From positions 32,220,019 to 32,284,018 of the forward strand of contig JAHRHZ010000019.1 of the NCBI GenBank assembly GCA_024137785.1: a stretch of 64,000 nucleotides of DNA, read 5' to 3'. The notes under the pieces were generated by a model, which ran no database searches, was not told where the DNA came from, and saw only the letters and a program-made list of their open reading frames with translations. The stretch is from Ginglymostoma cirratum (taxonomy: Eukaryota). Positions 4,511 to 62,159 of this stretch are shown here, in pieces. Position numbers and translations under genes: made by a program. How positions within the stretch are numbered: the stretch's first letter is position 1; the number at the start of each line of letters is the position of its first letter.

Positions 4511-6895
4511 CTTCAAACAAAAAAACTCAGAAATTCTTCATAATCTATCAAAAAACACTTGTATCGGCAGAGCATCCTAAACAGAAATTAAGTGTCACAG
4601 GATACTTTATATAAGAAACAGATGGAACAGGATGGAAGAAACAGCAATGAGGAGAATACATTCTGAGCAAACTTTCAAAGACAAAAAGTGAAACAATAAA
4701 GCAAAAAAAGAGTGAGTCAGTTACAGTGAGGGACCTGCATTTCTGAAAGCTCTGTCACCAACGAGGGATGTTAGAAGGAAAAACAGAATACATAACTGGT
4801 CAAAATCCCCATGTCTTCTAACTGAGGGTATGACCATCTATGTCCAAGTACCTTTCCCTGATGAAACTGTTATCTATGCTTTTGCTGCTGCACAACTCAA
4901 CTTTCTTCACCAGCATCCAAACTCTATCGTGACACATTGTACCTTGCAGAAAAATCTAAGCTGACACTAAATTTACTTGATGTTCACTGCTGTTATCTCT
5001 AACTTCTTGAATCACTGAATTCAAAATTCTCGTGCAATTTTACGAATGTCTTCATGGGCTTGCCTCACGTTATTTCTACAATGTCTTTCATGCCGTGTGG
5101 TGAACTAGGATATCAAATTCAGTGCAACAAGTAGAAGCCATTGGAAACTGTAGATAGCAGCAGTGAATGACAAGTAGACAGTGTGGGTAAGTTTGTGTAG
5201 TGATGACCTCTGGATGCTGGTAAGAAAGCTGTGATGCCACAAAAGTATAGATAAAGGTTTGAACAGAAGGTGATACTCAGTCTTGGTGATGGATGGATCT
5301 ATCTTCAATTAGAGGAATGGAACAGCCCAGGACATGACTCTTTTCATAATACTACATTTTATATAATCCTGAATCAATTGAGGCAATAGGCACAGATTGG
5401 TGCTATGAATGCCTCCTCATTTCTTCAAATGTTCCTTCTCATAACAAGGAACTCTTATGGTGAAGCTCCAATGAAATACTGATAGGTGCCAGCTACAAAC
5501 ACTTATCTTAGATTTCTTGGATACAAGGCAAAAGCTACAGTATTTGCTTTTATGCTTTTCACAGTTTCTTTTTGATGATGTTGAATCCTTGACAGAATAC
5601 TGTTAACAGTGAACAGTGTTGTGTTTTATCAAATTGTTAATTTGGACACAGGAACAGATTTTAAGAGGGTTGAAAAGCTCAGTGTTAATATGCAATCCTT
5701 CTCGAAAAAAACAAACATACATAAATTATAACATTTTTGATTTGGAAATTAGCTCCCTTCATATCTGCACATGACTACAAATTGTGAACAAACTTGCGTC
5801 AAAGATTCATAAACAGGGCCATTCTAAAAATGAGATGAACCTATGCTTCCAGCAGAGTGGCTTGTTCCTAGTTCTTCAAATCTCAGCACTTACTTTGAAC
5901 TACATTTACATTTGCGTTGCACAAGTGCTTTCCCATGTCTTCACATGAGTGGGATCAGTAAGTGCTGCTAATTTTACAGTGAAGACAGGGAGACACCACT
6001 ATATAAAAGAAAATGGATGGAAGGCAAGAGAGCTGCAAATTTGTATTTAAATGCTGACACTTAAACTTTGTTTCCCCAAATGCAGTGATTGCATATGCAT
6101 GAACAAACTTGGCCTACATACTAACAACCTGGCAAATCAGCTTTGAATTAAATAGATAGAGTGAGGAAAATGGTGTTATTGTTAAGTGAACATCTAGCTT
6201 CATTAGCATAGATGTACGAAGCAGTAACATTTTATGGGAATCTATTGTTTGATCTAGATTGAAGAACAATTCCTTCAGGTAACTCAGTCAACATTTCTGC
6301 TGTAAAACTGAGACACAACTGATTATATTGAAAATAACAAGAAAATATACCAAGAACAAGGGACAGATTAATTTATTCTAAATCTGGACTTTCCACATAT
6401 GAATTCATTTAAAAGAGTATTAGCAAACTGAAAACAGTCAATATTTGAAAATAGCTTTTGTTTCCCATTGGCTAGAATAATCTCAACTGTAACCATGGTT
6501 AAGTGCAATGTTAAATCAATTTTTCTAAACAGCATTTTGTCAACACAAAGTAAGTGACTTGTGGTATTAGCATTTTCCTTAAAATAAAACTGTTTATAAC
6601 ATTTATTCTGAGCCCAAATTTATAATACTGCTAAATAACTGTTCAACAATGAACACCAGAAAGTGCAGGATGGTGAAGTGAGTAGATGGAAATACCCAAG
6701 AATGGTTCATCCTACCAGGGTTATTCATGGTAATGCAAAGGCAACAAACTCTGACAAGTTTCCCTTCATGTAAACTAACTCATACTATAATGCTTTCAAT
6801 TGGAGATCATAGGATCTCTCTCTGCAACTTGCAACAAACTAAGAGAGCTCTTTGATCCATTTTTCTTGTCACACAAAAGAACAATGCTGAAGTAA

Positions 6896-7114
6896 GAGAC
6901 AACAGTGTGGAGCTGGAGGAACACAGCAGGCCAGGACGCATCTGAGGAGCAGGAAAGCTGACGTTTTGGGTCGGGATTTTGGGTTCAGATTTCTGAAGAA
7001 GGGTCCTGACCCGAAACGTCAGCTTTCCTGCTCCTCAGATGCGTCCTGGCCTGCTGTGTTCCTCCAGCTCCACACTGCGCTGTCTCTGATCCCAGCATCG
7101 GCAGTTCTATCTCT
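6896..7114 (+). mobile_element. Fold-back Penelope-like (PLE) terminal-repeat element, copy 1
   Basis: Perfect 64-bp inverted arms 6903-6966/7014-7077, one-sided ~30-nt tail, 14-bp direct repeat caatgctgaagtaa at 6882-6895 and 7115-7128. Confidence 0.8.
6989..7024 (+). ncRNA. Putative minimal type I hammerhead ribozyme
   Basis: CTGAAGA-A-GGGT(CCTG)ACCC-GAAAC-GTC: core boxes, stem II and GUC triplet intact; stem I very weak. Confidence 0.6.
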
Positions 7115-8419
7115 CAATGCTGAAGTAACACCTTTCTCATATACACTACAGCACAAGATAGAATTGTGCAATTTTTGTAATATTAAGAAGGACCTCACCA
7201 TAATTGTTCATGACCAATCCTTTTAATCGATAACTGGTAACTTGAAAACTATAGTTATTCAGTATCTTTTGTCTATCTATTTAAGTCAACAGAAAAAAGC
7301 CACTAAACTTTAAACAGCTTTAACACTTCTCTGTATTACTGTTTTGAAAATACTAGCCAGTGAATGATGTATAAAACTATTGTACTACAAGTAAATAGAA
7401 CATATTCTATGATTTAACAAAAACTACTGTGGTTATTTCATCTCAGAACAGGAACACCCACGGAAACAACAACGGGCAAATGGAATAATGGAAGCAAAAG
7501 AAGCTTCATAATTTCCTACATTTCTTCCTCCTGTAGATTGCATTTATAACAAACAGGATGCAACAATACTTGAGCTCTCCCCCTGCTGAAGAGAATTTGT
7601 GCTAAAGGACTCCATGGAAGCAACAGCCCTTAGATACTTAGTGTGATTGGCCATTTTTGAGTGTGAACTTGATTCTTAGGTAGATCAATTCCATAACTGA
7701 CAAAGTTGCAGTCAAACTTTACTCTATTCACAGTGGCAATCACAAACCTTCCAGCAGAGGCAAATAAAGAAGGATCATGTGAAAATAGTCTTTTTTTCCC
7801 AAGCTATGAAGCAAAAACATTGAGAATAACTGCAGCAGACTTCTTCCATTGCAGTCGAGGGGCGAAACTCAAGGCAGCTTGGAAAGTGCAACTAAAATCA
7901 TGTTACACATGCAGGAACTGTCAAAATTACATTTGATGAAACAAATCAAAGTGCATTTGTACAAACACAAAAGCAGATAAATTTATAGTAAATCTAACTA
8001 CCTACAGTGCAGGTTTGTGTCTCCAACTGAGAAAATATTTGGAAAGGCCAAGGTCAACATCGCCTAAATATTCAAAACTGCAAAAGTTAATCTACAGAAT
8101 GGACGAAGTAAATACATTTAAACAAAAACCAGCTGAGAATAAATCTTCTAATTAAGATTTATTAACACAACATAAACTTATGCTTATCATAAACTAATTC
8201 AAAGTAACTTATTCAATATTATACAGTATTTCATTAATGCCAGCGAATTTTCATTTATTTTTTGCATCTTTTCAACTGTCTTGAAATGTTACTTCAAGGC
8301 GGAGTAAATAGGATTATATGCTAAGAAAATAATCATCTTACATTTCAAAATATCATTTAAAACTGCAACTGCAAGCTATGCCAGAATTATAGAAATACAG
8401 TAAGCTCATGACTTGACAG

Positions 8420-12150: not shown

Positions 12151-12369
12151 TCAAACAAACTTTGCCACCAGACCTCCCACTAATTCTTGCCCAGAACCTC
12201 ATTATCTTGGATACACAATTGTGCACATATGTTGCATTCTTCTCTGTTCTGATTGAAAACATTAACTTTGTTTCTCACTCCTCAGATGCTGCCAGATGAG
12301 TATTTTCAACACATTGAGTTTTTGGGGTTTTTTTTGCCTCCTTGCTGGCAGCCTTCTGATTCACATTCT

Positions 12370-17357: not shown

Positions 17358-20300
17358 CTGAAAAATGCAATTCAAGTAAGATTACCGTTGTCAAGTATTT
17401 AGCTTTATACATTCACCTTCTTCACGTCAAGGAGAGAAAACATATAATGCTCAAGAAATAAGCAGTCATAGTCAGTAGTATCTGGGATTCAGTAAGGGAT
17501 AAGCAAATTCATTCACGTTGACGTTTGTGTAGAGAAAAAGTGGATTAATAACCATTTGACAAATTATTGAGAATTAGCCTTGAGAATCATGTTAAATATT
17601 GCAGAGATAAACTGCTAGAATGGGCGAGAATATTCACTAATTAGCTATAATTTGATGACTTGTAAGATTGCAGAAATGCTCAAAACAGGGCCACATGTAT
17701 TAAAAGAAAACTTTTCTGGCATTATGATCAAGAAACAGGTAGCCTAAATAGAATAAATCACACAGAATAATATCTGTACAAAAGATTACATGACAAATAC
17801 ATGCAGACAATCGTTGGAACATTTAATAAAAAAATCTGAACTGGTGTATGTTCTTTCACTAAAAAGTGCAGCCCACATTTGTATTAAAAAATATTTTAAC
17901 TTTTTACCTCAGTCCCTGATCTGTCTCTCCATAATCATCAAGGTAAGGCGGTGGATAAAAGCACCCTTTTGTTTTTCCAGCCAGGAACAAAATCTGGCTG
18001 TCTCGAACTCTGAAAATGTACAACAACCATAACAATGTTAAAACTGTACACAATTTAGTTTTTTTTTTTTACAAAGCACTGTATTTGGGTATCAATTTCT
18101 CATTCTTCTATTAATAAAGAATCAAATCATCAGATGCTCTTATAATTCAGTTCTCTGACCAAACATTACTGAAATGCTGCCTTTTGGAACACAGTTGAAA
18201 ACTAGGGTTATAGTGTCCTGAAGCAAAGGATTTCAGTGCTTCAATTCTGAATTAACTCCACATCACAATTACAATGATTCATACTTCACCATGATTGTTA
18301 CTTGTGGAACTGGTGAAGATGGAAGTGTCTGTTAGGGGTTACAACAATAAGATTAAGGTTTTAACTCACCGCAAAAAAATTCCAACTCCACAACCACAAG
18401 TGTAGGTATGAGCAGTACAGGCCCCAACATCTTCTCCTTCCAGTTCTGTTTGACAGCAGTAGCTCTGAGAACACAGCATTCCCCCACAGACCAAGCAGAG
18501 TGTTGGTGCCCGACTTTTATCCCCACCTGATTTTGGACATCTATTTCAAATTGTAAAGAAAAGTAAAAACTTTGGCACAGGTGACAATTAAGTATAAACA
18601 GATGAAATTCACTTATTGATACTTTGATGGGAAAGAATGTGAAATGTTATTTGCCCCTTGTAATGGGAATTGTCTGCTAATTCAGCATCATTTTATGATG
18701 CGCTGGTGTGATGTCAATTTTATTTGGAACAAGTCCCCACTTTACAGTTATTAGAGGGCTAAGTCTAAAACTATACGTGACATGTCAATGAAATCATATA
18801 CATCATCACAGGACGTGGTGCAATGTCACACTATGGTGCCTTTGCTTGCAGACTCGGAAAGAGATGAAGCCAGACATAAGATACTTCTTTTAAAAAAAGT
18901 TAGGCCTAGAAATTCCAGTCAGGGTCAGAAGTCCTATTCTCAACAACAAAAACAGTAGTTTCTGGAAAAGGTCGGCAGGTCTGGCAGCATCTGTGAAGAA
19001 AAATATCAGATTTAGCGTTTCAGGTCCAGTGAACCTTTGTCTGAACAATTCTCAACCCTGGTTAGATTAAACATTTCTGGGCAGAAACGCCAGTTAGAAC
19101 CGAGCCAGGAATCCTGAAATCCAGTAGTAGGGAAGGTTATTGTAGAAACCACACCCTCTTTTACAGCACTAAGTGCTGTACTCTTCAGATTAAGTGTCAA
19201 GCAAACACTGGCAGCTACTGTGAATGGGCAAGTATCTTAGGTAAGTGAAGGGGTTAGGGTAGCAGGTTGGTAAGGGGTTAGAAAGGCAGGGGAGTACAGT
19301 GTAAGGAATCAGGGTCAGTCATGGAGTATGGTCTGGCAGAAAGATGCATATTGGCTTGGATGATGGAGGGTGTTGGGGGCCAGTGCAAAGGATATGGGGT
19401 GGTGTTCAGTGTGCAGCCAGAAGTGCCAAGTGGATGATCTATTTTGGGTCCCTCCTGAAGTTCCCCCCATTACATAAATATCAATACATTGCTAAAAGAT
19501 ACTGGATACTGCAAAGGCTTGAACAACAAATCCACAATCGTATTGAAGACTTGTGCTCCAGAACAAGCCAGGCCACAAGCCATGATGTTTTCGTGCAACT
19601 ACAACAATGCCATCTAGCCAACTTTGCAGAAAATGCCCCAAGTACGTGCAGTGCATAAAAAGTAGGTTAAATCTAACTTGGCTAATTATTGCCCCATCTG
19701 TCTACTCTCAATCATTAGCAAAGTTTTGGAAGGATACTATCATGCAGCACTTACAAAGGGATAACCTGCTCACTGATACTCAGTTGCATTCCAGCTTCTG
19801 ACCTTATCACAGCCTTGGTCCAAACACAGGTAAAGAGCTAAACTCCATATTGAGGTCAGAGTGACTGCCCTTCACACCAAGGCATCATGTGACCATCATT
19901 TAAGCAAAACTACAGTCAATGGTTATCAGAGCAAAATCTTTGCTGGTTGTAGTTATACCTAGGAAAAAGAAAAATAGTTGGGGTTGTTGAAGGTCAATCA
20001 TCTCAGTCCAATGACATCACTGCAGGAGTTTCTCAGGATAGTGTCCTGGATCCAACTACCTTCCTGTTCTATTAATGACCGTCCCCTGTCATCAGGTCAG
20101 AGGTAGGGATGCTAGCTGATGACTGTATGACATACAGCACTTTTCATGACTCTGCAGGTTCTAAAGAAGTTCATGCCTAAATGCAGGAAGACCTGGATAA
20201 CATCCAGACTGCAATGATAAGAGGCAAGTAACATTTTTGCCTCACAAATACCAGGCAATGGCCATCTCCAACAAGATTAATCATTGACCCTTGACATCCA

Positions 20301-23300
20301 ATGTCATTACCATCATTGAATCCCACAATCTCAACATCCTGGATGTTATCATTTAATATGGTCTGAAATAATCCCTTAGATCTAATGGAATGAGGAGACA
20401 GGTGATGGATATATTAATAAACTGGTTGGGTTAGAATTGGTAGTTTGAATATGAGAGCTGGTATTGGGTGAGGTGTGTTTTATGGAGTGTGGCCAATTGA
20501 AATAAAGTCCTCACGTAAAAGCATGGGCACGAATTTTGTTAAAATGCTGTCCTCTTTCGGAGTATAACACTGGAAATTACAATTGTCCAGAAACTGAACT
20601 GGACCAGCTACGTAAATGCTGTGAGCACAAGAACAGGTCAGAAGCTAGGAATTCTGCAGCAAGTGACTCAGCTCCTATCTCCACAGTGCGTGTCCACAAA
20701 TCACAAGCATGATGGAATAATCTCCACTTGCCAGACTCAGTGCAGAAACAACACGCAGAAATCTGGATGCCAAGCAGGACAAAGCAGCCTGCATAATTAG
20801 CACCCCATTCATAATCTTCAACATTCACTTGTATCACCACAGTGCAGATGTACTGCAGCAACTCACTAAGGTTGCTGCTTTGACAGCACCTACCAAACTA
20901 GTGACCTCTATGACTTAGAAGTACAAGGCAGCAGATGCATCACAGCATCATGACCTGCGTTTCCTCTCTCAGTCCCACACTATCCCCGACCTGGATGTCC
21001 TTACATCCCAAGGACTGCATTCATTCAAGATGACAGTTGACCATACCTTCCCCAGTGTAGTGAGAAATGGGCAATAAATGCTGGCGTAGCCATAGATTTC
21101 CACATCCCATGGATGCATTAGGAAGAGTGCTCCTTGATGCTCAACAACACTTACCTTCACTTTATTTCTGGAATTCAGTTAATTATACGAAGCTAACCAA
21201 TTCTAGTAGAATTGAAACTCCGCATTGAGCAATGGGTTATGTGTAAGCAAATATTGCTCAACAATGCTTCAAATTAGCCCTTCCATTGCTGATGGGGTAA
21301 TAATCACAGGTAGAAATGGCCAAATTCAATTTTGTTGCACAAGGACTCACGGCCCAAACCTTCCAACAGCAAGATCATCATTGCAGCCAAGTAGACAGGA
21401 GCTGCGCATTAATACCATCCAGAAATCCTGGCCCAGCCAGCTCTATGGCAATTAATTGAAGCTGAAAACATCTACTGGAACCCTCCAAACGAATGTATCA
21501 ACTCTGACTGACAGTTTTTAGAATTAGAATTAGAATCAGAATCCCTACCGTGTGGAAACAGGCCCTTCGGCCCAACAAGTCCACACCGACCCTTGCAGCA
21601 TCCCACCCAGACCCATCCCCCTATAACCCACACACCCCTGAACACTATGGGCAATTTAGCATGGCCAATCCACCTAGCCTGCACATCTTTGGACTGTGGG
21701 AGGAAACCCACGCAGATACGGGGAGAATGTGCAAACTCCGCACAGACAGTCACATGAGGCAGGAATCGAACCCGGGTCCCTGGCGCTGTGAGGCTGCAGT
21801 GCTAACCACTGAGCCACCGTGCCGCCGTTGGAGATGTGTAATGGCTCTGTCTGATTTAGCTCAAGAGATTCCAGGGAAAAGTTCAAGGAATGAGTACGTA
21901 TTCACCTCACTATGAAGGTGATCCTCCTGACTCTTACTTCACCACTTCCCAACCCTTCACAGACACCCAACACCCAACACCCAACACCCAACCTGGACCT
22001 CACCACCAACCCCACCACACCCAACACTGACCTGACTTTGATCTGACACTGCCTCTACACCCATGTCTCAAGGGCAACCAAATGTTCACAACCCAACCAA
22101 CACCCTCAACTCTCCATGACCTATCCTATACGTGCAAATTTTCCTGCACTAAATCAGGTAGTGGAGCAGCTATGGCACTCAAATTTGGTACAAACTTGTG
22201 ATAGAAACCATACATGGACAAAAACCTCTTCATTTCCTGATGAGGTTTAGTGGCAGGGAACTCTACTAATGCTTGCCCTTTTCTGATCTTGGCAACATTT
22301 GTCTGTGCCCTTTTATATGCCCTACATCAGCTACACTCACCCTTGCAAGGTTTTGGCAAGATTTATTACCCAAAAGAATGGACCGAAATTTCCTAAGCAC
22401 AGCTCCAAATTGTTCAAAGCAGTCCTCCCAAGTTATTGAAGTATCTGGTTGAATCATCAAGCTTAGGCAAAAACATCACTGGAAAATTCTAACTATTTTG
22501 ATTTGGTAAAGAGAGGTGTTTTTCCCGTCACATACTGAACTGCTTTCAACTATGAAGGCTTCTCCGAATGCAAGAGATGCAACACTGCTAGCTAACCAGG
22601 CAGGATGTCATTCAATTTGAGAATTCTGTAGGCCTCCTCTGTTTCATTTTCACTATCCCTTTTGTTCTCCTTCTTTGCTACCTGACACATCTGAACTTGC
22701 CTATTCGCATCCTGGTGATGATATTGCTTCAACGTATTGATTTGACAGTCCTATGATTTAACTGGTGATCTGTGGTGTCAATCAGATTATTTAGTTCACC
22801 ACTTATTTTGACTACTCAATACGGATCATCGACCACACTTTCACCTTGTAAAAAAGCAGTAATACTGACATCTAAATCCCTGGTTGAAATGTTTGGGATT
22901 TGGCATGTTTATCTACCCAGATTTCTTGAGCTACCCTGCATGTTCCTGTGAGCCATTCTCAGGATACAGATAGGACAAATTTTCCATATGAGACTTTGTC
23001 CTTGATGGTTTTCTTTGATTAATTTCAGAGACCTCTTAACTCATCTCCATAGACCTAAAAAATGATTAAAACCAGTCAACTCATGAGGGGACTCTCATTT
23101 AGCGCACAAAAGAAATTCCAGTCATTGCCTCAATCACAAAGATATTCTGGCCGGTAAAAATGTCAACTTCTATATCATCTGTACAAGTCTCAGTAACTAC
23201 CAAAGGCATTTTCACATAAAGAGGTGCAGTACACCTGGTCTTTCCTATTATTGTTTTGTGTTAGGCATCATGAGTGAGCTGTCATTTGTATGTTACAAGA

Positions 23301-26300: not shown

Positions 26301-29300
26301 AGCTCACCTACTGATAGCCATTTCTATTACAATGACCCAATCTAGTTTCAATACATTCAAGGAGCTTGTGTTAGCTTCATTTATACTGAAACCTATTTGA
26401 AAGAAGCTTGCCTCACCAAACATGCTTAGAAAAATCAACTATGAATCAAATCAGCAAGAGGACATTACTATTTATCAACAATTTGGTACAAATTCCATTG
26501 GTTGATGTGTTTTGTTACATTTTCCATGTTCCACATACAACTCTGCCCATTCAAATCAGGCCCAAATAAAGGATCCTTCATAATGAGTTCATGCTGTAGA
26601 CAATGGCAGAATATTGTGGCAAGATGGGCAGCACAGTGGCTCAGCAGTTAGCACTGCTGCCTCATAGCGCCAGAGACCCAGGTTTCATTCCAGCCCTGGG
26701 CAACTATCTGTGTGGAGTTTGCATATTTTCCCCCGTGTCTGCGTGAGTTTCCTCCCACAGACCAAAGACGTGCAGGTTAGGTGGATTCGCCATGCTAAAT
26801 TGCCCACAGTATCCAGGGATGTGCAGGCTAGGTGGATTAGTCATGGGAAATACAAGGTTACAAGGATAGGGTAGGGAAGTGGGTCTGGGTGGGATGGTCT
26901 TTGGAGGGTCGGTGCGGACTCAATGGTTCAAATGGCCTGCTTCCAAGCTGTAGGGTTTCTATTACTCTATGATGCAACGATGCTGAAATTGGAAGAAGAT
27001 ACCAAATGGGGCCTATTATGACTTGGGACCAGTAAAGACTTTTTTGAAGTTGAGAAAATGCAGACAATAGAGCCACAAGATGCCATGAAATAATGAACTT
27101 CAATACACAACGTCAGAACTATAATACAATCTATAAGACAAAGAAAATTACATTCTAACATCGAGAATTAACACGAAATAAACATGAGTTAGAAAAAGTG
27201 ATCAAATAGTCAACAGAACACATCAAAATAACAAATAATCAAGACTGACACCAGAAATTTCTCAGCAACTTTCTCCAGGCATTAACAAGAGTGGTGATCA
27301 TCAAACCTCATTGTATTTCACAAGGGATGACAATTCTTCACTTGGATGATCTGGCCTTGAAACTCCCTCAAGAGCCACTCCATCATGGATGGCCTCAACA
27401 CCTGTACAAATTCTAGTTGATCACCTGCCTTTCCTGGGACCACACTGCCCTGAATTCTGGAAACTCTACTTGTACTTATTCAGACACAACTGCAAATTTT
27501 CACCAGGCTAGTTACGTCTCAGGGTTTTTCAGAATTCCAATCTTGCTCAGTTGGATCAAGCTGCCTCTGTCACACATTGCCTTAGCAGTGGGTCCAGCTA
27601 CCTATTGGGCTTTGAACATCTCTTCCTTAACCTTTGACTGCTTGTAATGGCCTATTAAAAATCTTCCAATAACACCCCCAACCCATCCCTTGTTCTTATT
27701 TGGACTCCAAAAGTAAATTGCATCTTAAGCTAGCTGGCCATATGGAAATCCTGTCTACAATAAACAGGACAATTAAAACTGAGCCATTTACTTTCATGAC
27801 AGTCTACTCTTCATTATCAAAGAGTTATCACCAACAATGCTGTCAAGTGACACTTGCTCAGCAATATCCACTCCCTGATGCTTCGTTTGGTTTCTGCCAG
27901 AGATGCCAGTGTTAGTTCAAATGTGGACAAAAGAATTGAATTCCAGAGTTGAGTTCAGAGTGGCTGTGTTTGACATAAAGGGAGCATTTGACCAAGTGTG
28001 GCACCATGGAGCCTGAGCGAAACTGAAGGCAATCAGAGTCAATGGAAAAACACTCTGCTGGTCAGAATGATAGCTGGCACAAGGGAAAACAATTATGATT
28101 ATTGGCAATCAATCATCTCTATCACCGGATAGCACTACAGAAGCTCCTAAGGGTGGCATACTAGGCCCAACAATCTACAGCCCCGATATCAATGACCTTT
28201 CTCCCATCATAAAAGTTAAAGTATTCACTGATGATTGGATAAAGCTCAGCACCAATTGCAACTCTTCAGATACTAAAGCAGTCAGGATCTGTGTGTATAG
28301 GAGGTGATTAATGGCAATTAACATTTGTGTCAAAGTAGCGCTGGTCGATGGCTATCGCCAACAAGAGAATTTAACAACAGTGTGGAGCTGGAGGGAACAG
28401 CAGGCCAGGCAGCATCGGAGGAGCAGGAAAGCTGATGTTTCAGGTCGGGACCCTTCTTCACCTGACTCGAAATGTCAGCTTTCCTGCTCCTCCGATGCTG
28501 CCTGGCCTGCTGTGTTCCTCCAGCTCCACACTTGTGTAATGTGACTCCAGCATCGGCAGTTCTTACTATCTCTGAGAATTTAACAATATCGCTTTGCAAT
28601 TCAGCGGTATTACCAGCAGTGAATCCATCACTATCAACGTCTTTGGTCGGACCACTGATGAGAAACTGAACTGGATAAATACACGGCTACAACAGCAGGT
28701 TAAAGGCAAGTAATGCTGATGCAATTAACGGATCTCCTGTCTCTCCAGTGACTGCCCATCATCGACAAGGCACAAGTCAGAAATGAGAAAGCATACTCTC
28801 CACTTGCCTGGATGGGTGCAGCTCAAAACAATACTGAAGCAGCTCAACACAATTCAGAACAAAATAGCCCTCTTGACTGGTATACCATCCACCACCTCAA
28901 CATTCAGTCCCTTTTCCAGCAATACACAGTAGCTGCAGCAACGACAAGTTGCAAACCCACAGCCTCTACCATCTGAAAAGGAGATGGGCAGTGGGTGCAT
29001 CCCAACAAGTTAAACTCAAAATTACACACCATCTTAACTTGGAACAACATCACCCTTTCTTCACTGTCACTGGAATTCCTTTCCTTAGACTAAGTAGAAC
29101 GATCTGGCACCTCAATGACTGCAGCGGTTCAAGAACACACATCATGGCAACCTTCGAGGGCAATTAGGGGCTGGTCAAGAAATGCTAGCTGAGCCAATGA
29201 CACCCATTTTCCGTGAATAAAGTTTTAAAAATTACAGGACAAACCACAACATAAAATTCACGACAATAAATCTTCAGTAAATGTGAGTGCCCTTTTATGC

Positions 29301-32300: not shown

Positions 32301-35300
32301 GGAGGATACCATAAGAATCATTGCTTAGGTCTTAGCTAGTAACTATATACAAGAAGGACTCAGACGACAAAGTTGAGCATAATTTGTCTAAATTTGCTAA
32401 TGACACAAAATCAGATGCGAAAGTAAGCTACGGGGAGCAGCAAAGAGGCTACAATGGGAGCATACTAAAAGTTACGCTTGGTAACAATGGAACATAAAAT
32501 GGTGGGAAATCTGAAATTAACTTTGGAAAGGAAACAAAACCAGAATCTGTCTTAAACGGAGATAGTGTGGAAAATGTTGGCAGAGGGGCAAGGGATGCTT
32601 TTATATGAATCACATGAAGTTAATGTGCCAGTATAACAAGTTACTAGGAAAGCAAATTCTATGCCTGCTTTTCTAAACGGGGGTTAATGTATAAAAGTGA
32701 AAAAGCTTTGTTTCAACAGTGTTTAATCTTAATAAGGCACCACTTGTGCAGTTTTGACCTCCTAACCTCAGGAAGGACATAACTGACCTTGGCCAGAGCA
32801 CAATAAAAGTTCACTGGAATAATCTCATGGATGAAGAGAAATGCTGTGAATAAAGAAACATTTTGAAGTTAGTTTTCTTAGATTACCTGTTGAAGATGTC
32901 AGTAAAATCTGTACAATGTGTGCTGTCGTAACCAAATGGAAGAGATGAAGGTGACCAACAGCTAAGCTAACTCCTGTGAAATCTTGGCAGTGCAGAGCTG
33001 GGTAAGAAAGCACGAGGCTCACCTGTAGGGAGAGCAACTGTTACAAAAAAATGCTATGGGAACACTATTTTAGAGGGAGGAATGAGGAAATAGAACTTCG
33101 AACAATTAACTCAAACATAACATTGGAAATAAATAAAATGGCAGCTGGCTGTACAATGGACAGCTGCCAAAATGTGAAGATGATGCCAAAATGATGGCAC
33201 AAAGAAGGAGGAACATGGCTGTAAGATTTTAAGCAAAATAATGCAGGAGAAATAGGAGAAAGACGTTTCCTAAAATCAGCAAGTAGGAATGACTAAGAAG
33301 GCACCGCCTACAGAAGGTAGTGGATGCCACGACAAGCAATGAATTCCAAAGTTAAATTAGAAAGACAATTAAGGGAAATACGCTTCCAGAGCTAAGGGGA
33401 CAAAATTGGGAATGAGATTAAATGAACTGCTCTACGACGTGTAGGCATAAACTCCAAGGGCCAAATAGTTGTCAAAGTGGATTATAAAAAAGCCAGTTCA
33501 AGTGCTTGAAAGGATCCTTTGAACTCAATAGATGATGTACAAAATGCTAACACACACTTACTGCTAAAATTCCATTGCTGTCACTCACTCCAAATGTTGC
33601 TGGGCCAAGCAGACAATACAAGGCAGGATAACAAATTTAATTCAAGATCTGACAGTGGAATTAGATCATGATGGAAAGAGGAAAAGGAACTGGCCCATAA
33701 ACCTTTGTCATTATAATTTTAGTTAAGAAGACTGTACTTGTCAGAAAAAATAAGGATATGATTTTATTCAAATTTGATTCAAACATTAAGGTGATATTGT
33801 AATAAACCCTCAATATCACCGATTTCACACAAAGGAAAAACCCTTACGTGTTTTCTAAAATCAAAGCCACAAACGAAAGAGTTTGATGTTCCAATATTAA
33901 ATGTCACTTAAAAATGGATGTACTCTTCCTGTTAATGTCAGTTAAGTTTTGAAGAAACTCCATGTTATTTTAGGGAACATGAAAAAGGGTATCAAATTGG
34001 TTTTGTACATACATCAATAGTACTTCCAAGTAACTGAAACAAAATAGTTCACTTACTAAACCTAGTCTCAGTGAATAATCACAAAAGTTAAGAAATTACC
34101 TACCAATAAATGGAACATGTCTACATCAAGAATGGATGGAGAAATCTGAGTCTTATCATCATCAGGTATCAGAACTGAAAGGGAAAAATCCATAGAACAC
34201 TAAGTTTCGTTTCTCCATGCCAAATACTGCACACCAATTTATTAAAACTGCTTTTTGATCTATGTTCAATTAATATCAAAAGCGGCAAATGACTTGTAAA
34301 TGAGCTTTCTGAAGTTATAATTATAATGGTATACACTTATAGTCAAATATCCAAATGATACAGCACACAAACCTGATAATAGTCGAGCATATTGTTTCTG
34401 GACCACAGACAAAGAACTCACAGTCCACTGCGACGCGGCAAAACGAGTTAATGCCTTCAGACAGTCATCCTATAAAACACAATTCTAGCTGCAGAAAACA
34501 TCTGAAAATATAGCTCATTACAGAAACAGCAAAAGAACTTGCATTCAGGTGGTGTCTTTCATGACCGGTGAACATCCTAAAGCATTTCAAAGCCGATAAT
34601 TTACGCAGGTTAAAATATAACAATAACGTGCATAATTTCTGGAATAACCTGTATTAACTAAATTCTGAAGCACTTTCCAATGACCAAGTATCTTAATTCC
34701 TTACACCAAATAACAAGTTTAAAAACAGAACAAACTTGGAGACTGAGGTTAAGCCACTGCGAATAAGGAAATGGGAGTTAAACAGATAATTTACACCAGT
34801 CTTCACAGTGATGATACTTCAAACAAACCATTAATATTTAAAAATAAGGGAGGAGGATTTAAGGACTATCACCATCATGAGAGAAGTAGTACTAGCCAAA
34901 CTGATGAGGCTAAAGGCAGGTACATTCTCGGACCCTGATGGCTTGCATCGTAGGACCCTAAAAGAAGTGGCAACAGTATTAGCAGATGCTTTGGTTGCAA
35001 TTTTCTAAAATCTGTAGATTCAGGAGAATTCCTGGAGGATTGGAAAACTGCCAATACGACACCCCAATTCAGAAAGGGAAGAAGGCAAAAAGCTGTTAAC
35101 TACAGGCTAATTATCCTGTTGAAAAAGTGTTGGAATCAATTAATAAGTAATAGCAGCCCATTTGGAAAATCATAATCTAATCTCAGTCAGCATGGCTTCA
35201 TGAAAGGGAATTTGTGTCTCACTAATTTATTAGTTTTTCAAGGAAGTATCGACCAAAATGGATAAAGGGGAACCAGAAGATATATTGTATTTGGACTTCC

Positions 35301-38300
35301 ATAAGACATGCAACAAGGTACCTCACAAAAGGTTAAGTCATAAAACAAGGGCCCCTGGTGTTGGAGGCAGTATATTGCCATGGCTAGAGATTTGGTGAAT
35401 GGGCAAGAAACAGCAAGTGGAGATAAGGGACCCCTTGTCAGGTTAACAATCTGTAACTAGTAGGATTCCCCAGAGATCAGTGTTGAGTCCGTGACGGTTT
35501 ACAACATGTATTAATGATTGGAGGAAGGAAGCAAATATACTGTAGCCAAGTTTACAGATAACTAAAATAGGTAGAAAGGCAAGATAACAAGGTGTGGAGC
35601 TGGATGAACACAGCAGGCCAAGCAGCGTCATAGGAGCAGGAAAGCTTGACGTTTCGGGTNNNNNNNNNNNNNNNNNNNNNNNNNNNNNNNNNNNNNNNNN
35701 NNNNNNNNNNNNNNNNNNNNNNNNNNNNNNNNNNNNNNNNNNNNNNNNNNNNNNNNNNNNNNNNNNNNNNNNNNNNNNNNNNNNNNNNNNNNNNNNNNNN
35801 NNNNNNNNNNNNNNNNNNNNNNNNNNNNNNNNNNNNNNNNNNNNNNNNNNNNNNNNNNNNNNNNNNNNNNNNNNNNNNNNNNNNNNNNNNNNNNNNNNNN
35901 NNNNNNNNNNNNNNNNNNNNNNNNNNNNNNNNNNNNNNNNNNNNNNNNNNNNNNNNNNNNNNNNNNNNNNNNNNNNNNNNNNNNNNNNNNNNNNNNNNNN
36001 NNNNNNNNNNNNNNNNNNNNNNNNNNNNNNNNNNNNNNNNNNNNNNNNNNNNNNNNNNNGGGTCCAGGCCCGAAACGTCAAGCTTTCCTGCTCCTATGAC
36101 GCTGCTTGGCCTGCTGTGTTCATCCAGCTCCACACCTTGTTATCTCGGATTCTCCAGCATCTGCAGTACCTATGATCTCTTCGGTAGAAAGGCAAGTTAT
36201 GACAGGGATACTAAATGTTTACAGAGAAATAGTGATAGGTTAAATAAGTGGGCAAAAAACTGGCAAATGAAGTACGGTGTAGGAAAATATTAAGTTGCTC
36301 ATTTTGGAAGGGAGAACAACCAACACCATTATTTAAATGGAGCAAAATTACAGAATGCTGCAACTCAAAGAGACTTCAGAGTACTTGAGCACAAAACATA
36401 GAAAGCAAACACAAAGGTGTAGCAGGAAGGCTAAAGTAAAGCTGGCCCTTATTTCAAGGAGGTTGGAATACAAGAGGAGGGAAGTCTTACTGCAATTGTA
36501 CAAGGTGTTGGTGAGACCAGATCTGAAGTAATGAGCGCAGTTTTGGTCCCCTTATTTACAGAAAGACATAATTTCATTAAAGTTATTTCAGAGATGGTTC
36601 ACTAGCATGATCCCAGGTATGGAGGGTTTGTTTAAATGAACAAAGACTAAACAGGTTAGGACTTCATTCGTTGGAATTTAGAAGAATTAGCAATGATCTC
36701 ATTGAGACATAGTGGATTCTTAAAGGACTTGACAGGGTAAATGCTAGGATGATTTTTCTCCTCATAGGTGAGTCCATGGCCAAAGGACATAATCTCAGAA
36801 TAAAGGTGCCCCAACTTAAGACTGAGATGAGGGGGGAAATTTCTTTGTTCACAGGGTCGACTGTCTTTGGAAATCCCTGCCACACAGAGTTGTGGGGGCA
36901 AAGTCCTTCTGCGTATTTCAGGCTGAGATAGATAGATTCTTGATCAGTAGAGGAATCAAGGGTTACCAAAAAAGTGGATGTGAGGAATGCTGGATAAGCT
37001 ATGTTTTAGTGAATGGCAGAACTGGCTCGAGGGGGGTGAATTACATACTCCTGTTGGTACTTCTTATGGCTATGGTCTTATATACATATTCTGCATGCTA
37101 AGGTTTTCCCAGTAAGACTGTTGACAAATTTGTCATCAGCATTTTTAAAATCCTTCTTGAAAAAAATTCAAAAGCTGTTTACATTTTCCAATGTAATCTC
37201 TCATTCATTGTTTGCTCAACAGTCCTTATACATCTTCATCATTCCTACCTGCCGACATGGTAGATGACCAAACAGTGGCTTTTCTTCATCTGCTAGGAAA
37301 CGCTCTGGAAAAGAAAGAATAAAAAACATTTCTAAATGCTTACTCTAGTCTTGTTTAACATTGTTAAATTCAAATATTAAACTTTGCTAAAAGGAAATAA
37401 GTCAGCTTTTAAGTTCTGTACTACGAAGCAATTAATTTCAGATGTCTATACAAAATAGTCCACCACTTGGTAAATTTTACACAACATACAACTCTTACTT
37501 AATGTCAGTTTTATTGAATAAAGTCAACAAGGTTTTCAAATTATGACTCAGACGACAGTTTACTTAGCAAATAAAGCTGCTTATTAAAAGTAAATGCACT
37601 TAAATTTTGTTAATAGAACATTTAAATAAACATGTTGATTTAAATAGAGTACGCATTCTCTGAGGCTCACCTATTGCTTGTACTGTGTACGCACAGCTGC
37701 CCCGGCACATCATAGGCACTCGTGGATCCTGTTCATTGGGATGAACCTTGAGACCCACTTTGTATGTTGCTGTAGCCAAGGTTGTAAGCATCCCCTTGAT
37801 GCTTTCTGAGAAAGGATTCCTATTAACAGAAATGAAAAGCCACTGCAAGAAACATCTCAACCAGAAATATCTAAAAATGCTTAAGTGCAATCTTCAAGGT
37901 GTTTTCTTATTCATTCAGAGGATGAAGGCATTGTTGGCCTAGCCTGTATTCGATCCTCCAGCCAGAGGTCTGCTGCTTGCCGGCTCCTTTTCCTTGCTTT
38001 CTTTTTCTCCCCCCTCTTCCCACCATCCCCCAATTTGTAACTTCTTAAAGTACCCTACCTGGAAGGAATGGAGAACGGAGTCCAAGACCAGCCTAACGCA
38101 GAGGCGGGAGCAGAGCGAGTTCGGGCCAACTCCTGGAAGTGAGCCACAGCCAGAAGGGGAGCAAAGCTACTGTGGACCAAGTCCCGGAAGTGAGCCACGG
38201 CCAGAGCTTGAAGCAGGAGCGAAGCGAGCGCAGGCTGAGTCCTGGAAGTGAGTCGAGGCCGGAGCCCAGAGCGGAGCACAGCAAGCACAGGCCGAGGCTT

Positions 38301-41300
38301 GTAAGCAAGCCACGGTAGGAGCAGCAGCAGAGCAAGCATGGGCCAACTCCTTGATGTGAGCCACAGCTAGAGTGGGAGCTGAGCTAGTGCAAACCAAGTC
38401 CCGGAAGTGAGCCACGGCCAGAGCCTGGAGCAGGAGCACAGCGAGTGCAAGCCCGGCAGGGGGACAGAGTCCTAGAGGTGAGGCCGGGACAGATACCAGT
38501 GCATGGAGACAGTGAGGCCTCGAGTTCTGAAGCCTAGCGGGGCACGGACTCAGTGGAAAACGACTATTACTCAAGTACTTGAAAGATACTTTTTATAATC
38601 ATTCCGGACTTTTTAAACCCCGTATTCCCATATTAGTCTATTTTTTTCAATTCTCTAACAACACAAAATATCTATAACTAGGTACCCTGTACCTAAGATG
38701 GTGCCGAGAGGCAACATTACAAACTTTTCACTGCACTCATTTAAGTACATGTGACAATAAAGGTTAGTCTATGAGACTCCATTTCCAGTATTTATTGAAT
38801 CCAAATTCCACCATCTGCCATGGTGGGATTTGAATCCAGGTCCCTACTACATTACTGGGGTCTCCGGATCAACAGTCTAGCGATAATAGCACTGGGCCAG
38901 CGCCTGTCCATATCAAGCCGACCGAACTTGAAAGAATAATGGTTTGATGTTGTAAATGGGTGCATTAAAGAAATCTGCTTAATTTGCCATAAAGCTGATT
39001 TGTTTTCCTCAACAATGAAGTCTCCAGTATCTTTACTGTGATATCAAGAAAGACTAGGAACAATCTGTGGCTGGAAAGATTGCCAAAAGATAGGATGTCC
39101 TATAGATTAACACACTTATTGCCGAAGAGCTGACATCAGATGCAAATGACCTTAAAGAAATAAAGGATAACAAGGACAGAACTCCAAACTCAATTCTCTG
39201 CACAGGCAGTCCGACAATGATTGCCACAGATTAAAAAAAAAGGTGGTGTTCTATAAATGTTCGCTTTGGTTTTAGTCCCCAGATGGAATATCATATTTGA
39301 AACGATAGAAGGTGCAGCTCTAATTTATGATTTCATAACAAACCGTAAAGATAAAGAAAATTAGGGCTACCTTGAAATTAATACAACTGTTGATTGATCA
39401 AGTTACATACTTTGGTTTTATATCGGGTTGAAATCCCTCAGGGACCTCCATTCCTTCTAGGTGGGTGTTGGAAAGATTATCTGAAAGGAAAAATAAATGG
39501 AGATACTGTGACTGATCTGGTGATCTTGTAAAGCTATTTTATGTTGCAAATTTATAAATTAGTTATATGCTCATACAATGAAGCTCATTTAAAGCCAACT
39601 CTGAAAACTCAAATCAAGGGTGGGCAACTAAATAAAATTTAAAACCACATGGAAACCTTGAAATATTTCTTTCCTTTATAAAAATAATCATTTTTCTAGC
39701 ACCTCGAATATATATAAAAGAACCTGCATGTCATTTTGGGTCATGGAAGTCAAAACCTTCCCAGGTTAATTACTACTGTTTGATGTATGCCCGTCTTGTC
39801 AAGTGCTTCCAGAATTCTGTTCTTAATCGCATATTAACATTGGCAGGGGAGGGTTTGCAGAACATAAATAGACAGAATAAAAGTAAATGTATATTCCAAA
39901 ATTGAATTTTTGAATATGATTAATGAAATTTAGCAATTTTTAAATAAAAGAAAGCACTACATCAGTTAGTTTGAACTTTGAGTAGTGAGTTCGACCTGAT
40001 ATGAAGGGTCCTGGTTCTTTCTCCATAGAAGTTAACTGGCCTGCTGAGTAGTTCAGATTTCCAGGATTCACAGTATTATGATACAATCTTAACTGGAGAC
40101 AAACATACACAACTCACTTCCATTGTTGAATGACAGGAGTTGGGGCATTAGCAATGAAGTTTTCCAGATCCTTTAATAAATTGTCATGACTTTGCTCATG
40201 ACTTCATATTGTTTCACAACACAGGATTTTAGCAAACATGGTTCAAATTCAAGAATTTTAATATGGGTGAAAATTTGACTTGCGTTTCTTCTAACAGAAG
40301 AACTGTAGCCTGAATGGCACACAATGAGAAACAAATATGATCACATATAACCCATTAAAATAATAAACTGTTTCTTCTGAGGCATTCGATATTAGATTCT
40401 CAAACGTGAGATCAAGTTAGGGTTCTTTAGGTGAGAGCTATTTTATGATGCTCATGAGACAGGAATTAGGAGATATTCTGAAGTTTTCATCACTTATTTT
40501 ACTTGTACAATAACAATTTCATCTTGAAAGATCTATATAGATGGGTGACCTTTTATAGATAAATGTCAAACAAACTTGATTGTTCAACACAATATCACAG
40601 GCAGAAGTATAAATTATCTTTCCTATGAAAAATCTCCCTTGTAATCATAGAAATTTGTATCTTGCAGCAAGGTATTTTTCGCTTATATTCTCATTTTATT
40701 GTATGTTTAACAAAAGGACATGAAACAAAAATTAAGCGTACATCTGATTTTCGTTTTGAAGTACCTGTTTGCTTTTCTTGGATTTTCTTCAGGGCCTTCA
40801 ACTGTTGCAATGTACGTTTCAGCCAATTCGATAAAACAGGAACACCTGCATTGTTTTTTGAACTGTCACTGAAAACAAAAGCACAGGTTTAATTAAACTG
40901 GTAGATGCGCCCAAGTTTCCTCTTAAACCAAATATTTTGCTCCAGTGTTGCTTCTCGAACTGAGTCAAGTAAAACATACAATAACTTGAGCATTTAAATG
41001 AACAAAATCTCAACATCAATGTCTCAGGAAATTAACTCAAGAAAAAATACTGAAGTTTGCAAACCACAATCTTGAGGGATTTTCCAGAACGGCAAGCACA
41101 CAATCTTTTGTTTTACTTGCCAAAGTTGTCAATAAACAAACTCAACATTCAACTACTTAATGTATGTATTCAATGAAGACATTTACAGGTAAGTACTCCA
41201 ACTGATACAGATTAGACTCAGGAGCACGATATGATGATTATGTCTATGGAGTTGGTTGAAGAAGAAATGGCCCAGATCTCTGGCACTCAATACTGTTGGA

Positions 41301-44300
41301 GACCAGGCATCTGTTCAGCCCCAGGCAGAAGACAATTCTCTGGTCACAGCCATAAATGACTTTGTGCAAAGGCACAGGCCCCACAACAGCCAACTGTTTA
41401 GCTAGTATGGAAAGATCCCAAAATGTAATTTTCCAGGAATACATTTTCATCTACAAAATACCACAGTATTTTGACAATATTGACATGCAATGAGGAGGCA
41501 TGCATTATGATATTTTACAGCAATTTTTTTTCCTTGAAAATTTTCTTCGTTTTTTGGGTTTTCTTAAATATTCTTAAGGGTCAAAACTAAACCTTTTACA
41601 TCGAACTTACCATGACTTATCCAGTTTTACACCATTCCAATAATCTCTTGTACTAACCTGTTTTGTACAGCCTTGGCCCTGTTCAAACCATTGACACTGC
41701 AACCAGGGCAAGTCTCCCAATTATTTTCTCCTTTCTTGTAACTACAGTGCAACAGCTTCATTTATTCTGTGTTTGTGTAGCACTCTTCAACACATCTAAA
41801 TATGCAATTGTATTGTTCAGTGGCTCTATTTCTATTTGTCCTAACACAACTGACACCATTCCAGCAATGTTTCCTCCTCCCTTTCCACATGGTTATCTTG
41901 GATAACTGCAACATTTCATCCTTGATATTTTCTGTATGTATACTGTTGTGACCCAGCTCTATGCCTCCAATTCCTTCAGCCACCTTTATTAAAATATCTA
42001 GGATTAATTCATCAATGAAAAACAAGTTTCTTCAATTGAGCATTTGGTCCAGATCAAATTACATATGAGAAATCCACTCCAGAATCCTAAAATTGCTGGG
42101 AAAAATTTACTCATGGGGTAACCAGATAAAAGTTACTCCCTTGAATAGAATGGAAGGCAATGGTGAGGAGGCACACTTGTTGACTACTGCTGCTCATCTT
42201 GCTCCTCCAACCACAGGGTGATTCCTTGCTTACTGCTGACAGGTTCACTGTGAAATACAGAGAGCTGGAGAAACTCAGCAGTCTAGCAGCATCAGTGGAG
42301 AGAAAAAAAATAAAGTTAATGTTTGGAGTCTGATACAACTTCTTCTGAACAGGCTCACTATGAACCATTCATCAGCAAGTGTGGAAGAGAACCAGTCTGT
42401 GATTGAAGCAGTGAGTGGCCACTGGTCAACAAAACAAGAGGTATTGAGGGTGGTAACAGAAGCAAAGGTGGGCTGCTGGGCAAAGGACCAAGAGTAACAA
42501 GCAATGCTAACAGGCCTGGGGGTGGGATAGCTGTCAGGGGTTGGACAGGCTGCAGAGTAAGGGTCAGGCAGACAGACTGTGAAAATAAGTTCGGGTGCAG
42601 GAAAAGAAGAATTGTCAAGGGGAAGTGGGGGCTCCTAAAAGGTGACAAATATGTTCTGGAAAGGATGAGATGCATCTGAAAGGGAAGAGTGGGCCTGCAA
42701 AAGGAAGAACACAGTTTTTGATTTTCGTTAATAGAATACTCACCGAACTGGGCACATGAAAACTGAGGTAATGAACTCCTTACAAAGTAGTGTGAAGTTT
42801 CTAGATTTAAAATGGGAGTTCAGGAACGACTAGAAAGGGGACATGTGATGGAGGCTGTTATAATGAACATGATGTCAATTGCATAATTTAATATTACACT
42901 GTTGTATTTCATAAAGCTTTACATCTTGTTTTATTATAGCTCAAGTCTTCATGTTCTGAATTACTGGAGATGCAGTTTTACAACAAACATGCCTGTTTTG
43001 CTGAGACCTTGCCCGACAACAAAAATTGTTTTTACAGTAATGGTGTCTTGAGCATAGAGGCATATCAGTTTACTAAAAAAAATAATGATTACTAACTTCT
43101 GCCTATTGTCTTATGCCAATTTAAATATTGCAGTACACAAGAAATTAATGGTTTCCTCATGAGTTGCAACGTTAAGTTTAGTGGAGTGGTGATGGAGTTA
43201 TTTGAATTCTGCTTCTGAGAACTCAAATGCACCATATAGCCACAAAAAAAAAAGACAGATAGTATTGTTGCTCAATTATTGAACTAGCAAATGAACAAGT
43301 TAGTGAGACCGAGAAAAGGAGCCAGTGAAAACAAAAAGCAGCCTTTGAAAATTTAGAACTAGTCCTCAAAAGAAAGCAAGAGACCATGAAGAAAATAAAA
43401 AATTAAACCATGATTCAGTTCTTATACCATGGCAAAGTCAGAGAATGACATTTGCAATGTTGGTCAGAGTTGTTTTTATGCATTGGGAGCAACGGGCATT
43501 TGATTGGAGGGATTTAAATAAAATTTCAGGAAAGATGGACACAGACCTGGCGGACAGCAGAGTTGAGGGCTTTGAGAAGTAAAGGGATATTGGGGATGGT
43601 GCATCTATTGGAAAACCAAGCAGGCAAATTCAGTCAAATACTTCTACAAGGAGATATTATAGGAATCTTGAAAGGCAGGAGTATAAAAAACCATTTATGT
43701 CAGTGGACGGTTGGGAAGTTCATGGAAATAGGTTCATGGGTACAGGGACAGGTTTCATAGCTGACAGCAATATGAAAGATTGACATTAGAAAATGTTGAC
43801 AAAGTGTGGCATTCACAAAAAAGCCTGGGCAAGATTTAGTGAAGAGGAAAGCAGTATAAATTTCTGCGCGGATATATTTCAGTAACAAACAAAAACACAG
43901 CAGTAAAGAGGCAGAGGACGGGAAAGGACTTCAAAGTTATTTTTGCACGTCAGGATATTTCTAGAGTAGTGTCAAAGCTTTTGTAAAGCAGAGATGTGGG
44001 AGATAACAGATGAATAAAAACAGCCAAATTAATTGCAGTGTGAAGTGGACAGACAAAAGTTCTATCAAGCACCAATACCAGCTAGATTAGGAACATAAAG
44101 CTGGAGTACAGTAGGCTATTTATTCCATTAATGTAGGTAATGCAATAATCTAACCTGTTCAATGGGTTTCTAGGAGAGGGAAGTAACGGAATAACAGTGT
44201 TGCTCAAACATTCACACAGTGGACAAAGAAATTCTCCATTCTCCACATCATAGCTTGTGTGCACTCTTAACCGCTGCTGTCTCCGCTGCTCCTTTGCTTG

Positions 44301-61198: not shown

Positions 61199-62159
61199 CT
61201 AAGAGGAGAAAGAATCAGCACGTTGTACATCACTTAGAGAACTACTTATTATATATGCTTTAAATGCTGAGTATCCTAATCTACAGTTTCATTTTGGGAC
61301 TATAAAATGTTCAATCCTCAAATCATCTTTACTTTTGTGATCTACATATTTGTATTGCTTTGAACAGGTTAGGAGTGGTGAACTGATTCATCTCCTTCTC
61401 CCAATTTTTCCAGTGGCCACAACAGACTTGGAGTTTAAAAGGGAGGTGACACTGTTGATTAAATATATTTATAAATTGTAGCTTAGTACTGTATTAGAAA
61501 CAAGGCAGCCTGTTCCTCATTTAACAAGGTTAAGCTTTACTTTTTCAAAAAGCTCGAGCAAATATGCAAAAATTAAGAAAAGGTTTAAAATATGCATATA
61601 TATTCAACAACCTTGGCTGAAAAGATATTCATTCCAAGCTTGGAAAATTACAAAACATCGCAAAGCACTATCTTAAAAGGATTTTGGATGTGTAATTGGT
61701 AAAGTAATTAAGAGGAGATTGTGACAAATGCTAGTCCATAGCTGAAGTAATTTCCACACTGACTATGCTTCTGTCAAGATTACCTCCAGTATTTGTGTTC
61801 AGTGCATGAACCTCAGAGGTCTGTGGACAGCAGCAACTTCTGAAACCAGAAGTTTATGCATTGGTGGCATGCCGAATGACATTGTCAATGACAATGACAA
61901 TGACCTTGGAGCAGGTGTACAGCTTACAGAGAACATGGACTTCTCCCTGGGCCATATATGGTCGGTTCTTCAAGATAGTGGTGTGGATTCAGACTTCTAC
62001 TTTATAAACGCTGCATTTACAGAGACCAGGTTGTTCAATGGGAAAACTCTCAAACTTTGATGAGAGGGGTTGATTCGGCAGGGGAGGGGGGGGGTAGTAA
62101 AGGCTGTTGCTGCTGTGGCAGATATTCTATGTGCTTTAAACAAAACTATTTTACAGCCT

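Follow-up and report, generated by a model that had tools for sequence, protein, structure and literature searches.

A 64,000-nucleotide stretch of the genome of the shark Ginglymostoma cirratum (contig JAHRHZ010000019.1, positions 32,220,019 to 32,284,018, forward strand; hereafter the window) carries three fold-back copies of one repeat family, at 6896-7114, 28378-28573 and 35584-36182 (copies 1 to 3), each consisting of two inverted arms with a tail on one side and an exact duplication of the target at both ends. With high confidence these units are derived from Penelope-like elements (PLEs). They are probably, although with clearly less certainty, the extremely 5′-truncated ends of a PLE bearing an open reading frame (ORF), folded back at insertion by two-ended priming. 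The data supporting this reading are the asymmetric ends and long, variable duplications of the copies, a minimal hammerhead ribozyme motif in copy 1 and a second, related family with tailed and tail-less ends.

Fold-back copies and target-site duplications

The ungapped arms measured 74 nt at 97% identity in copy 1, 53 nt at 91% in copy 2 (longer if gaps are admitted) and 77 nt at 100% in copy 3. Over a 52-nt core the arms of the same copy were 100, 96 and 100% identical, and identity between copies was 81-94%. The flanking repeats, different for each copy and exact, were of 14 bp (6882/7115), 13 bp (28365/28574) and 14 bp (35570/36183), the last one being 13 or 14 bp, with its final base common to repeat and arm. 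Among 20,000 trials of random position pairs, exact repeats of at least 13 bp and at least 14 bp were obtained with frequencies of 0.0003 and 0.00015, respectively. A one-sided tail is present in all three copies (28, 41 and 39 nt). An earlier note, made from the letters of this DNA, had claimed three complete copies with long inverted arms, distinct 13-14 bp flanking repeats and an extension of about 30 nt on one side; the fold-backs, the arms, the repeats and the one-sidedness were all recovered, the length of 30 nt proved to be the low end of the range of 28-41 nt, and completeness could not be maintained for copy 3, in which 400 of the 599 bases are N, so that 599 bp is an assembly span and the copy may be neither complete nor short.

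Codon spacing across the site of copy 3 was compared with a related reverse transcriptase (RT), for which 60 nt are expected: 58 nt were counted with one repeat, 72 with two and 44 with none, and the flanking repeat is thus a true duplication, since the spacing with one repeat fits. DNA-level comparison of empty sites with paralogues of the host long interspersed nuclear elements (LINEs) gave no clear answer, copy 2 scoring higher with two repeats than with one.

The centre of copy 1 is nearly symmetric about a short palindrome (6984-6997), and the inverted arm of copy 2 is about 17 nt longer than its sense arm. Close to the centre of copy 1, at 6977-6983, six bases of the inverted arm are replaced by seven that repeat the adjacent upstream sequence, as from template slippage.

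Two further copies had been regarded as retaining the tail end alone. This was correct for copy 4, a fragment of 51 nt, but not for copy 5. This insert of 97 nt (53458-53554) is bounded on either side by a 10-bp repeat with a single mismatch (chance about 0.04 among random position pairs) and is probably an intact, non-inverted, plain 5′-truncated insertion in a third LINE. The junction of copy 4 is complex (49866-49945), with a short stretch of the left flank that inversely matches the bases right after the tail and a direct repeat of 8 bp displaced by 6 nt. The 3′ ends of the five copies agree within a few bases and their start points differ. Target-site duplications measure 14, 13, 13-14 and 10 bp in this family and 11, 16 and 12 bp in the sister family described below, a range of 10-16 bp instead of a fixed short length; a convincing duplication was not found for two of the nine units of both families in the window. 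In agreement with the earlier note, the tail lies on the + strand in 5/5 copies; this bias is not significant, because its two-sided chance is 1/16 and most remnants of the sister family have the opposite orientation.

Hammerhead motif and sister family

A minimal type I hammerhead motif, not mentioned in the earlier note, is located at 6993-7020, within the sense arm of copy 1, and strengthens the link to PLEs that had been proposed there. It fits every listed position of the published PLE hammerhead consensus (PMC4209133) and presents the four marks given in that paper by Cervera and De la Pena: an extra base after A9, the G10.1-C11.1 pair, a palindromic helix III remnant and an NUH cut site. 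The closest motif among the rows of its Fig. S3 that were compared belongs to a Neptune PLE of Acropora digitifera, which likewise continues with AGCUUUC. Helix II is retained in copies 2 and 3, with G-U variants. A strict hammerhead descriptor matched the window once, in copy 1. Shuffled windows yielded a mean of 0.17 matches, with at least one match in 16 of 100 shuffles, and the weight of the match rests therefore on its position inside the element. From the sequence match, a cut after 7020 is predicted for the copy 1 motif. The predicted fold of the whole copy reaches -184 kcal/mol (z -22), and according to this model the long hairpin of a fold-back transcript would keep the motif locked.

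A second, older family related to the first one, absent from the earlier note, has left remnants at 12.2, 18.9, 42.3 and 45.9 kb, three of the four on the - strand. The search was performed with a profile built from nine arms, the four sister remnants among them, and this profile gave no match in the reversed window. Two sister units are tail-less, their ends lying close to the position at which copies 1-3 begin their inverted arms, and the third unit with a duplication is tailed. Such tailed and tail-less ends agree with the prediction from two reverse-transcription start sites.

Both tail-less units (19040-19045 and 42343-42348, -) show A for U at core position 4, the middle base of a near-palindrome of 7 nt; the same change may have occurred twice independently, or a micro-inversion may have taken place at the 5′ junction. 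A possible further remnant, very decayed, was detected at 39987-40058 (+) as a weak profile match (E 0.0009). The C-rich DNA at 42.4-42.8 kb was considered as a PLE 3′ untranslated region and discarded, as the sister unit located there has its own duplication. All features are detailed in Table 1.

Table 1. Coordinates of the repeat units, the hammerhead motif and the surrounding features in the window.
Feature	Position	Strand	Characteristics
Copy 1, left target-site duplication	6882-6895	+	14 bp; in register like the antisense tail at 9-11/14 bases
Copy 1, inverted arm without tail	6896-6989	-	Fold-back centre near 6990
Copy 1, sense arm	6990-7086	+	From arm alignment
Copy 1, one-sided tail	7087-7114	+	28 nt
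Copy 1, right target-site duplication	7115-7128	+	Exact repeat of the left one
Hammerhead motif	6993-7020	+	Core 6993-6999; extra A 7000; helix II 7001-7004 with 7009-7012; GAAA 7013-7016; palindromic ACGU; predicted cut after 7020
Copy 2	28365-28586	+	Insert 28378-28573; 13-bp duplications; asymmetric centre; 41-nt tail; in decayed LINE RT, UBR2 intron
Copy 3	35570-36196	+	Arms around 400-N gap 35660-36059; 13-14 bp duplications; 39-nt tail; in decayed LINE RT, UBR2 intron
Copy 4	49880-49930	+	51-nt tail-end fragment; best repeat 8 bp, not adjacent to the ends (chance about 0.03)
Copy 5	53448-53564	+	Non-inverted 97-nt insert 53458-53554; 10-bp one-mismatch duplication at both ends; in LINE 3′ end
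Sister unit, tail-less	18934-19056	-	Unit 18945-19045; decayed hammerhead core; 11-bp one-mismatch duplication
Sister unit, tail-less	42239-42364	-	Unit 42255-42348; decayed core; 16-bp two-mismatch duplication
Sister unit, tailed, 5′-truncated	45930-46038	-	Unit 45942-46026; exact 12-bp duplication
Sister remnant	12235-12324	+	Helix II region deleted; duplication looked for and not found
UBR2-like exons	about 17.3, 17.9, 18.4, 26.1, 44.2, 45.0 and 61.0 kb	-	UBR2-like E3 ligase gene, 17219-61047
Decayed LINE copies	34900-37050, 60700-63400, 53000-53456		RT-like matches on +

Origin of the units and alternative explanations

The source of the units is probably the terminal repeat (the end of a pseudo-long terminal repeat, pLTR) of an endonuclease-bearing PLE of cartilaginous fishes, of the Neptune clade; the likeness of the ribozyme sequence to the element of Acropora digitifera is a lead to this assignment. 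According to the mechanism that we propose, a PLE protein with RT and GIY-YIG domains would nick the two target strands 10-16 bp apart, the stagger corresponding to the duplications observed. Reverse transcription would start at the end of the RNA tail or about 30-40 nt inside it, as the tailed and tail-less ends suggest. Extension of both target ends, each from a different start site, would yield a pair of antisense cDNAs copied from one and the same RNA end. Both would run to about the first helix of the ribozyme and join head to head, giving a fold-back with a one-sided tail, while priming of one target end would leave a plain short copy. The hammerhead would be cargo of the terminus and the three fold-back copies would descend from uncut RNA; all three extend upstream of the predicted cut site, and copy 5 starts 2-3 nt beyond it.

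Priming at the inner site may be aided by short complementarity between target and element. The target of copy 1 agrees in register with the antisense tail at 9-11/14 positions (P 4e-3 to 9e-5, depending on the reference used), and at the inner junction about 6 nt are shared by target and element in copy 2 and 1-2 nt in copy 3. These three sites, a thin sample of sequence, suggest pairing of the target with the element at this junction.

Searches for an autonomous partner gave no more than leads. A Pfam scan of 157 open frames of at least 68 aa on both strands and 222 shorter minus-strand frames, with four short frames overlapping copy 1 excluded, retrieved UBR domains and two unrelated single matches, and tblastn with five PLE-related proteins did not find an ORF remnant in the window. 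Protein searches with peptides of the terminus retrieved 30 distinct predicted proteins, those named being from Stegostoma tigrinum and Rhincodon typus; this number includes P0014, an unrelated low-complexity repeat. Eight of the 30 gene models read the antisense arm and then the sense arm, and hence fold-backs are common elsewhere. Three spliced models (P0030, P0006 and P0023) join the terminus, sense or antisense, to an RT-like stretch with a YIDD motif, which we take to be of Neptune type, as a lead only. The stretch in P0030 is preceded by its own antisense reading with a score of 52 (shuffled maximum 6), and lower scores were obtained for P0006 (33) and P0023 (29), which carry the antisense reading, and for P0028 (18), among the 29 models tested. 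The ESM Atlas placed the RT-like stretch near eukaryotic clusters; two of these, at scores 0.88-0.89, contain RVT_1 in 19% or PF26215 in 11% of their members. The connection of the terminus with an RT gene, drawn from spliced gene models, is thus no more than a lead.

The model P0013, in which the start of a PLE GIY-YIG domain is joined to the terminus, was rejected as autonomous partner; the terminus has probably been inserted there into a different PLE family by nesting, because the GIY-YIG ORF stops in the middle of the domain and the related P0018 continues into a different end. The latter protein, a PLE with RT and GIY-YIG from Stegostoma tigrinum, has a C-terminal read-through whose codons, compared by eye, would suit another minimal hammerhead end, and represents a second shark PLE lineage. 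A PDB search with this shark PLE protein gave nothing below E 0.08, the ESM Atlas gave no usable match with the terminus peptide, and no stray copies were detected in a scan of bacterial genomes.

Several results weigh against folded-back PLE ends. By Pfam and tblastn the window contains neither a PLE ORF with RT or GIY-YIG nor a remnant of one, and among the retrieved proteins none has the terminus continuous with an RT plus GIY-YIG ORF. The models joining the terminus to the RT-like stretch are spliced predictions, and the stretch of P0030 has no significant match to Pfam, NCBIfam, PDB or P0018. With respect to the ribozyme, Rfam at the gathering threshold gave no match over the window, and a scan of 6960-7060 by E-value gave eight weak hairpin matches and no hammerhead. 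No hammerhead fold is predicted for the monomer (z -0.47), helix I having just two pairs; z-scores below -1.2 were not obtained for any of eight single arms or parts, and a hammerhead-like dimer (-12.7 kcal/mol) is exceeded by the best dimer fold (-25.9). Folding therefore gives no support for ribozyme activity. Fold-backs amount to only three, one of them gapped, and the identity of the arms could stem from later conversion within the palindrome. Finally, the 5′ ends of copy 1 and of three sister remnants cluster at helix I, on its 5′ strand and 1-3 nt upstream of the ribozyme core, and not at the cut site; plain truncation does not account for this, because the ends gather at one point rather than scatter. 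Such a fixed 5′ end would be expected if transcription began at this point or if the template were a short master RNA. Copies 4 and 5 and the unit at 45942 start further downstream, and only copy 5 just past the cut.

A possible alternative to the two-ended step, to which we give limited weight and which maintains the PLE origin, is that a single cDNA folds at its 3′ end, copies itself and halts about 30-40 nt before its start. The nearly symmetric centre of copy 1 is explained equally well in this way, a point to be counted against two-ended priming, the arms within a copy are near identical, and self-priming from junction palindromes has been argued for other PLEs (PMC3846280). Nevertheless, the centre of copy 2 is asymmetric, both strands are extended in vitro by a PLE protein (PMC11167929), and tail-less, non-inverted copies carry duplications, which indicates that the inner site primes without fold-back.

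Similarly limited weight is given to a dedicated non-autonomous family, the view of the earlier note, in which a PLE protein would copy in trans a separate master RNA, non-coding and about 125 nt long, that extends from helix I of the ribozyme to the tail. The clustered 5′ ends fit such an RNA, 7/30 gene models share this starting register although what precedes it in them is unrelated, and no upstream PLE sequence was seen; non-autonomous PLE derivatives (PMC8557442; bioRxiv 10.64898/2026.07.22.740005) and trans-mobilisation (PMC3846280) have been published. However, a splice acceptor in the inverted arm may have created the clustering of gene-model starts as an artefact, the copies that begin downstream do not share the register, an identity of 81-94% between copies does not indicate a single master, and a fixed stop would likewise arise if RT copied an ordinary PLE transcript through to its 5′ end.

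A DNA transposon with long terminal inverted repeats, whether a miniature inverted-repeat transposable element (MITE) or a fold-back element, would likewise be short and non-coding, with long inverted arms and flanking duplications, but is very improbable: the inverted repeat stops short of one end, leaving the tail outside, arm starts vary and a ribozyme motif of PLE type is present. The earlier note had already described the units as only looking like MITEs; the DNA-transposon reading fails because the ends are asymmetric, the duplications long and variable, and non-inverted, plainly 5′-truncated copies exist. Least credible of all is that the arms are scaffolding duplications produced by the assembly, as the 100% identical arms around the 400-N gap of copy 3 might indicate; copies 1 and 2 contain no gap and their arms differ, at several positions in CpG sites, the duplications are exact and distinct, and fold-backs recur in the gene models (8/30).

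Besides the favoured reading of truncated ends folded back by two-ended priming, a more specific version is advanced tentatively: shark PLEs may release a short cDNA of fixed extent, which begins at the tail, stops at helix I on its 5′ strand and is either strong-stop-like or made from a dedicated non-coding RNA. Two such molecules would be inserted head to head at a cut staggered by 13-14 bp, and base pairing with the target would prime the inner of the two.

Genomic surroundings and relation to known systems

The 3′ half of a gene for a UBR2-like E3 ligase, not mentioned in the earlier note, occupies 17219-61047 on the minus strand. Pfam matches correspond to a UBR1-like winged helix (60.9-61.0 kb), a RING-H2 finger (45.0 kb) and PRT6_C (26.1, 18.4, 17.9 and 17.3 kb), and the nearest PDB entry to the RING exon is UBR2 (E 2e-16), versus E 4e-11 for UBR1. 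Copies 2-5 are situated in UBR2 introns, between domain-matched exons, and copy 1 about 10 kb past the last PRT6_C exon. Insertion of two copies into LINEs had been described before; the nesting was confirmed and the number is three, as copies 2 and 3 break up decayed LINE RT frames and copy 5 lies within a LINE 3′ end. All nine RT-like LINE matches are on the + strand, antisense to UBR2. The LINEs are presumably CR1-like and L2-like, judging from their motifs. A repeat, which we take to be a short interspersed nuclear element, is present in two copies of opposite orientation (21538-21826 and 26627-26960) that flank a UBR2 exon and are 84% alike over 197 nt. A direct duplication of about 127 nt with 83% identity was observed at 38109-38452. 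PLEs have been reported in introns of the whale shark (10.1101/443036; PMC8455134).

For annotation, these units resemble MITEs on a dot plot, yet are most likely ends of a retroelement. If they are abundant in shark genomes, counts of junctions of minimal insertions with long, clear duplications could separate two-ended priming from self-copying of a folded cDNA. Should the version with a defined short cDNA be true, MITE-mimicking retro-hairpins would be abundant, with thousands of junctions recording the steps of PLE integration. The intronic fold-backs (copies 2 and 3) would yield long double-stranded RNA, and no function is indicated here.

Twin priming of L1 elements also uses both target ends as primers, and results in an inverted 5′ part, a target duplication and microhomology at the inner primer. 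The inverted part in L1 is upstream sequence, whereas in the shark units it repeats the same RNA end.

The architecture found here (an inverted pLTR tailed on one side, duplications of variable length, a ribozyme and insertions that can be very short) is already published for PLEs. The general scheme has been described (PMC8557442, with a one-sided tail of 30-40 bp; PMC8969392), as have a repeat of 34-37 bp (PMC2377424) and new PLE insertions with a median of 128 bp (PMC9977147), and the origin of the inverted repeats, tails and duplications of PLEs is stated to be still open (PMC8557442; PMC11167929). A paper on this shark family was not found in the literature searched; Repbase and Dfam were outside the scope of the search, and the family may well be catalogued there.

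The elements Pen2 and Pen2a of Adineta vaga (PMC3846280; scheme in PMC8557442) share with the shark units a head-to-head terminal repeat, a one-sided tail of about 30-40 nt (an optional one of 31 bp in PMC3846280), a variable duplication, junction palindromes and solo pLTRs. They differ in that the gap-free shark copies lack an ORF, have about 100-125 nt per arm and show duplications of 10-16 bp, against 8-10 bp in Adineta vaga. Direct pLTRs formed by partial head-to-tail tandems, another trait of such elements, were not seen in the window, where the gap of copy 3 could conceal one.

Minimal hammerheads of metazoan PLEs (PMC4209133, Fig. S3) share with copy 1 the CUGANGA followed by an extra A, the G-C closing pair, a 4-bp helix II with a 4-nt loop, GAAACGUC and then AGCUUUC, and nearby motif pairs on opposite strands are already noted in that paper. 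In contrast, copy 1 has UUU instead of GCU as the 5′ strand of helix I, with two pairs only, and there are no chondrichthyan rows among those compared.

The protein of Poseidon PAc from Anolis carolinensis (PMC11167929) cuts and extends both strands in vitro, from two start sites that bound the tail and with uncut RNA as main template, all of which fits the shark ends. Its clade is likely a different one, no ORF start within the ribozyme is shown in the shark units, and the shark targets are mildly AT-rich (50-77%).

Non-LTR retrozymes, described as PLE derivatives (bioRxiv 10.64898/2026.07.22.740005), are like the present units non-coding, carry a type I hammerhead, are related to PLE pLTRs and include one from a chondrichthyan. 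They are defined by at least two hammerhead units in head-to-tail tandem, and such tandems were not found in the window by self-BLAST; the shark units are single or head to head, with a tail and long duplications.

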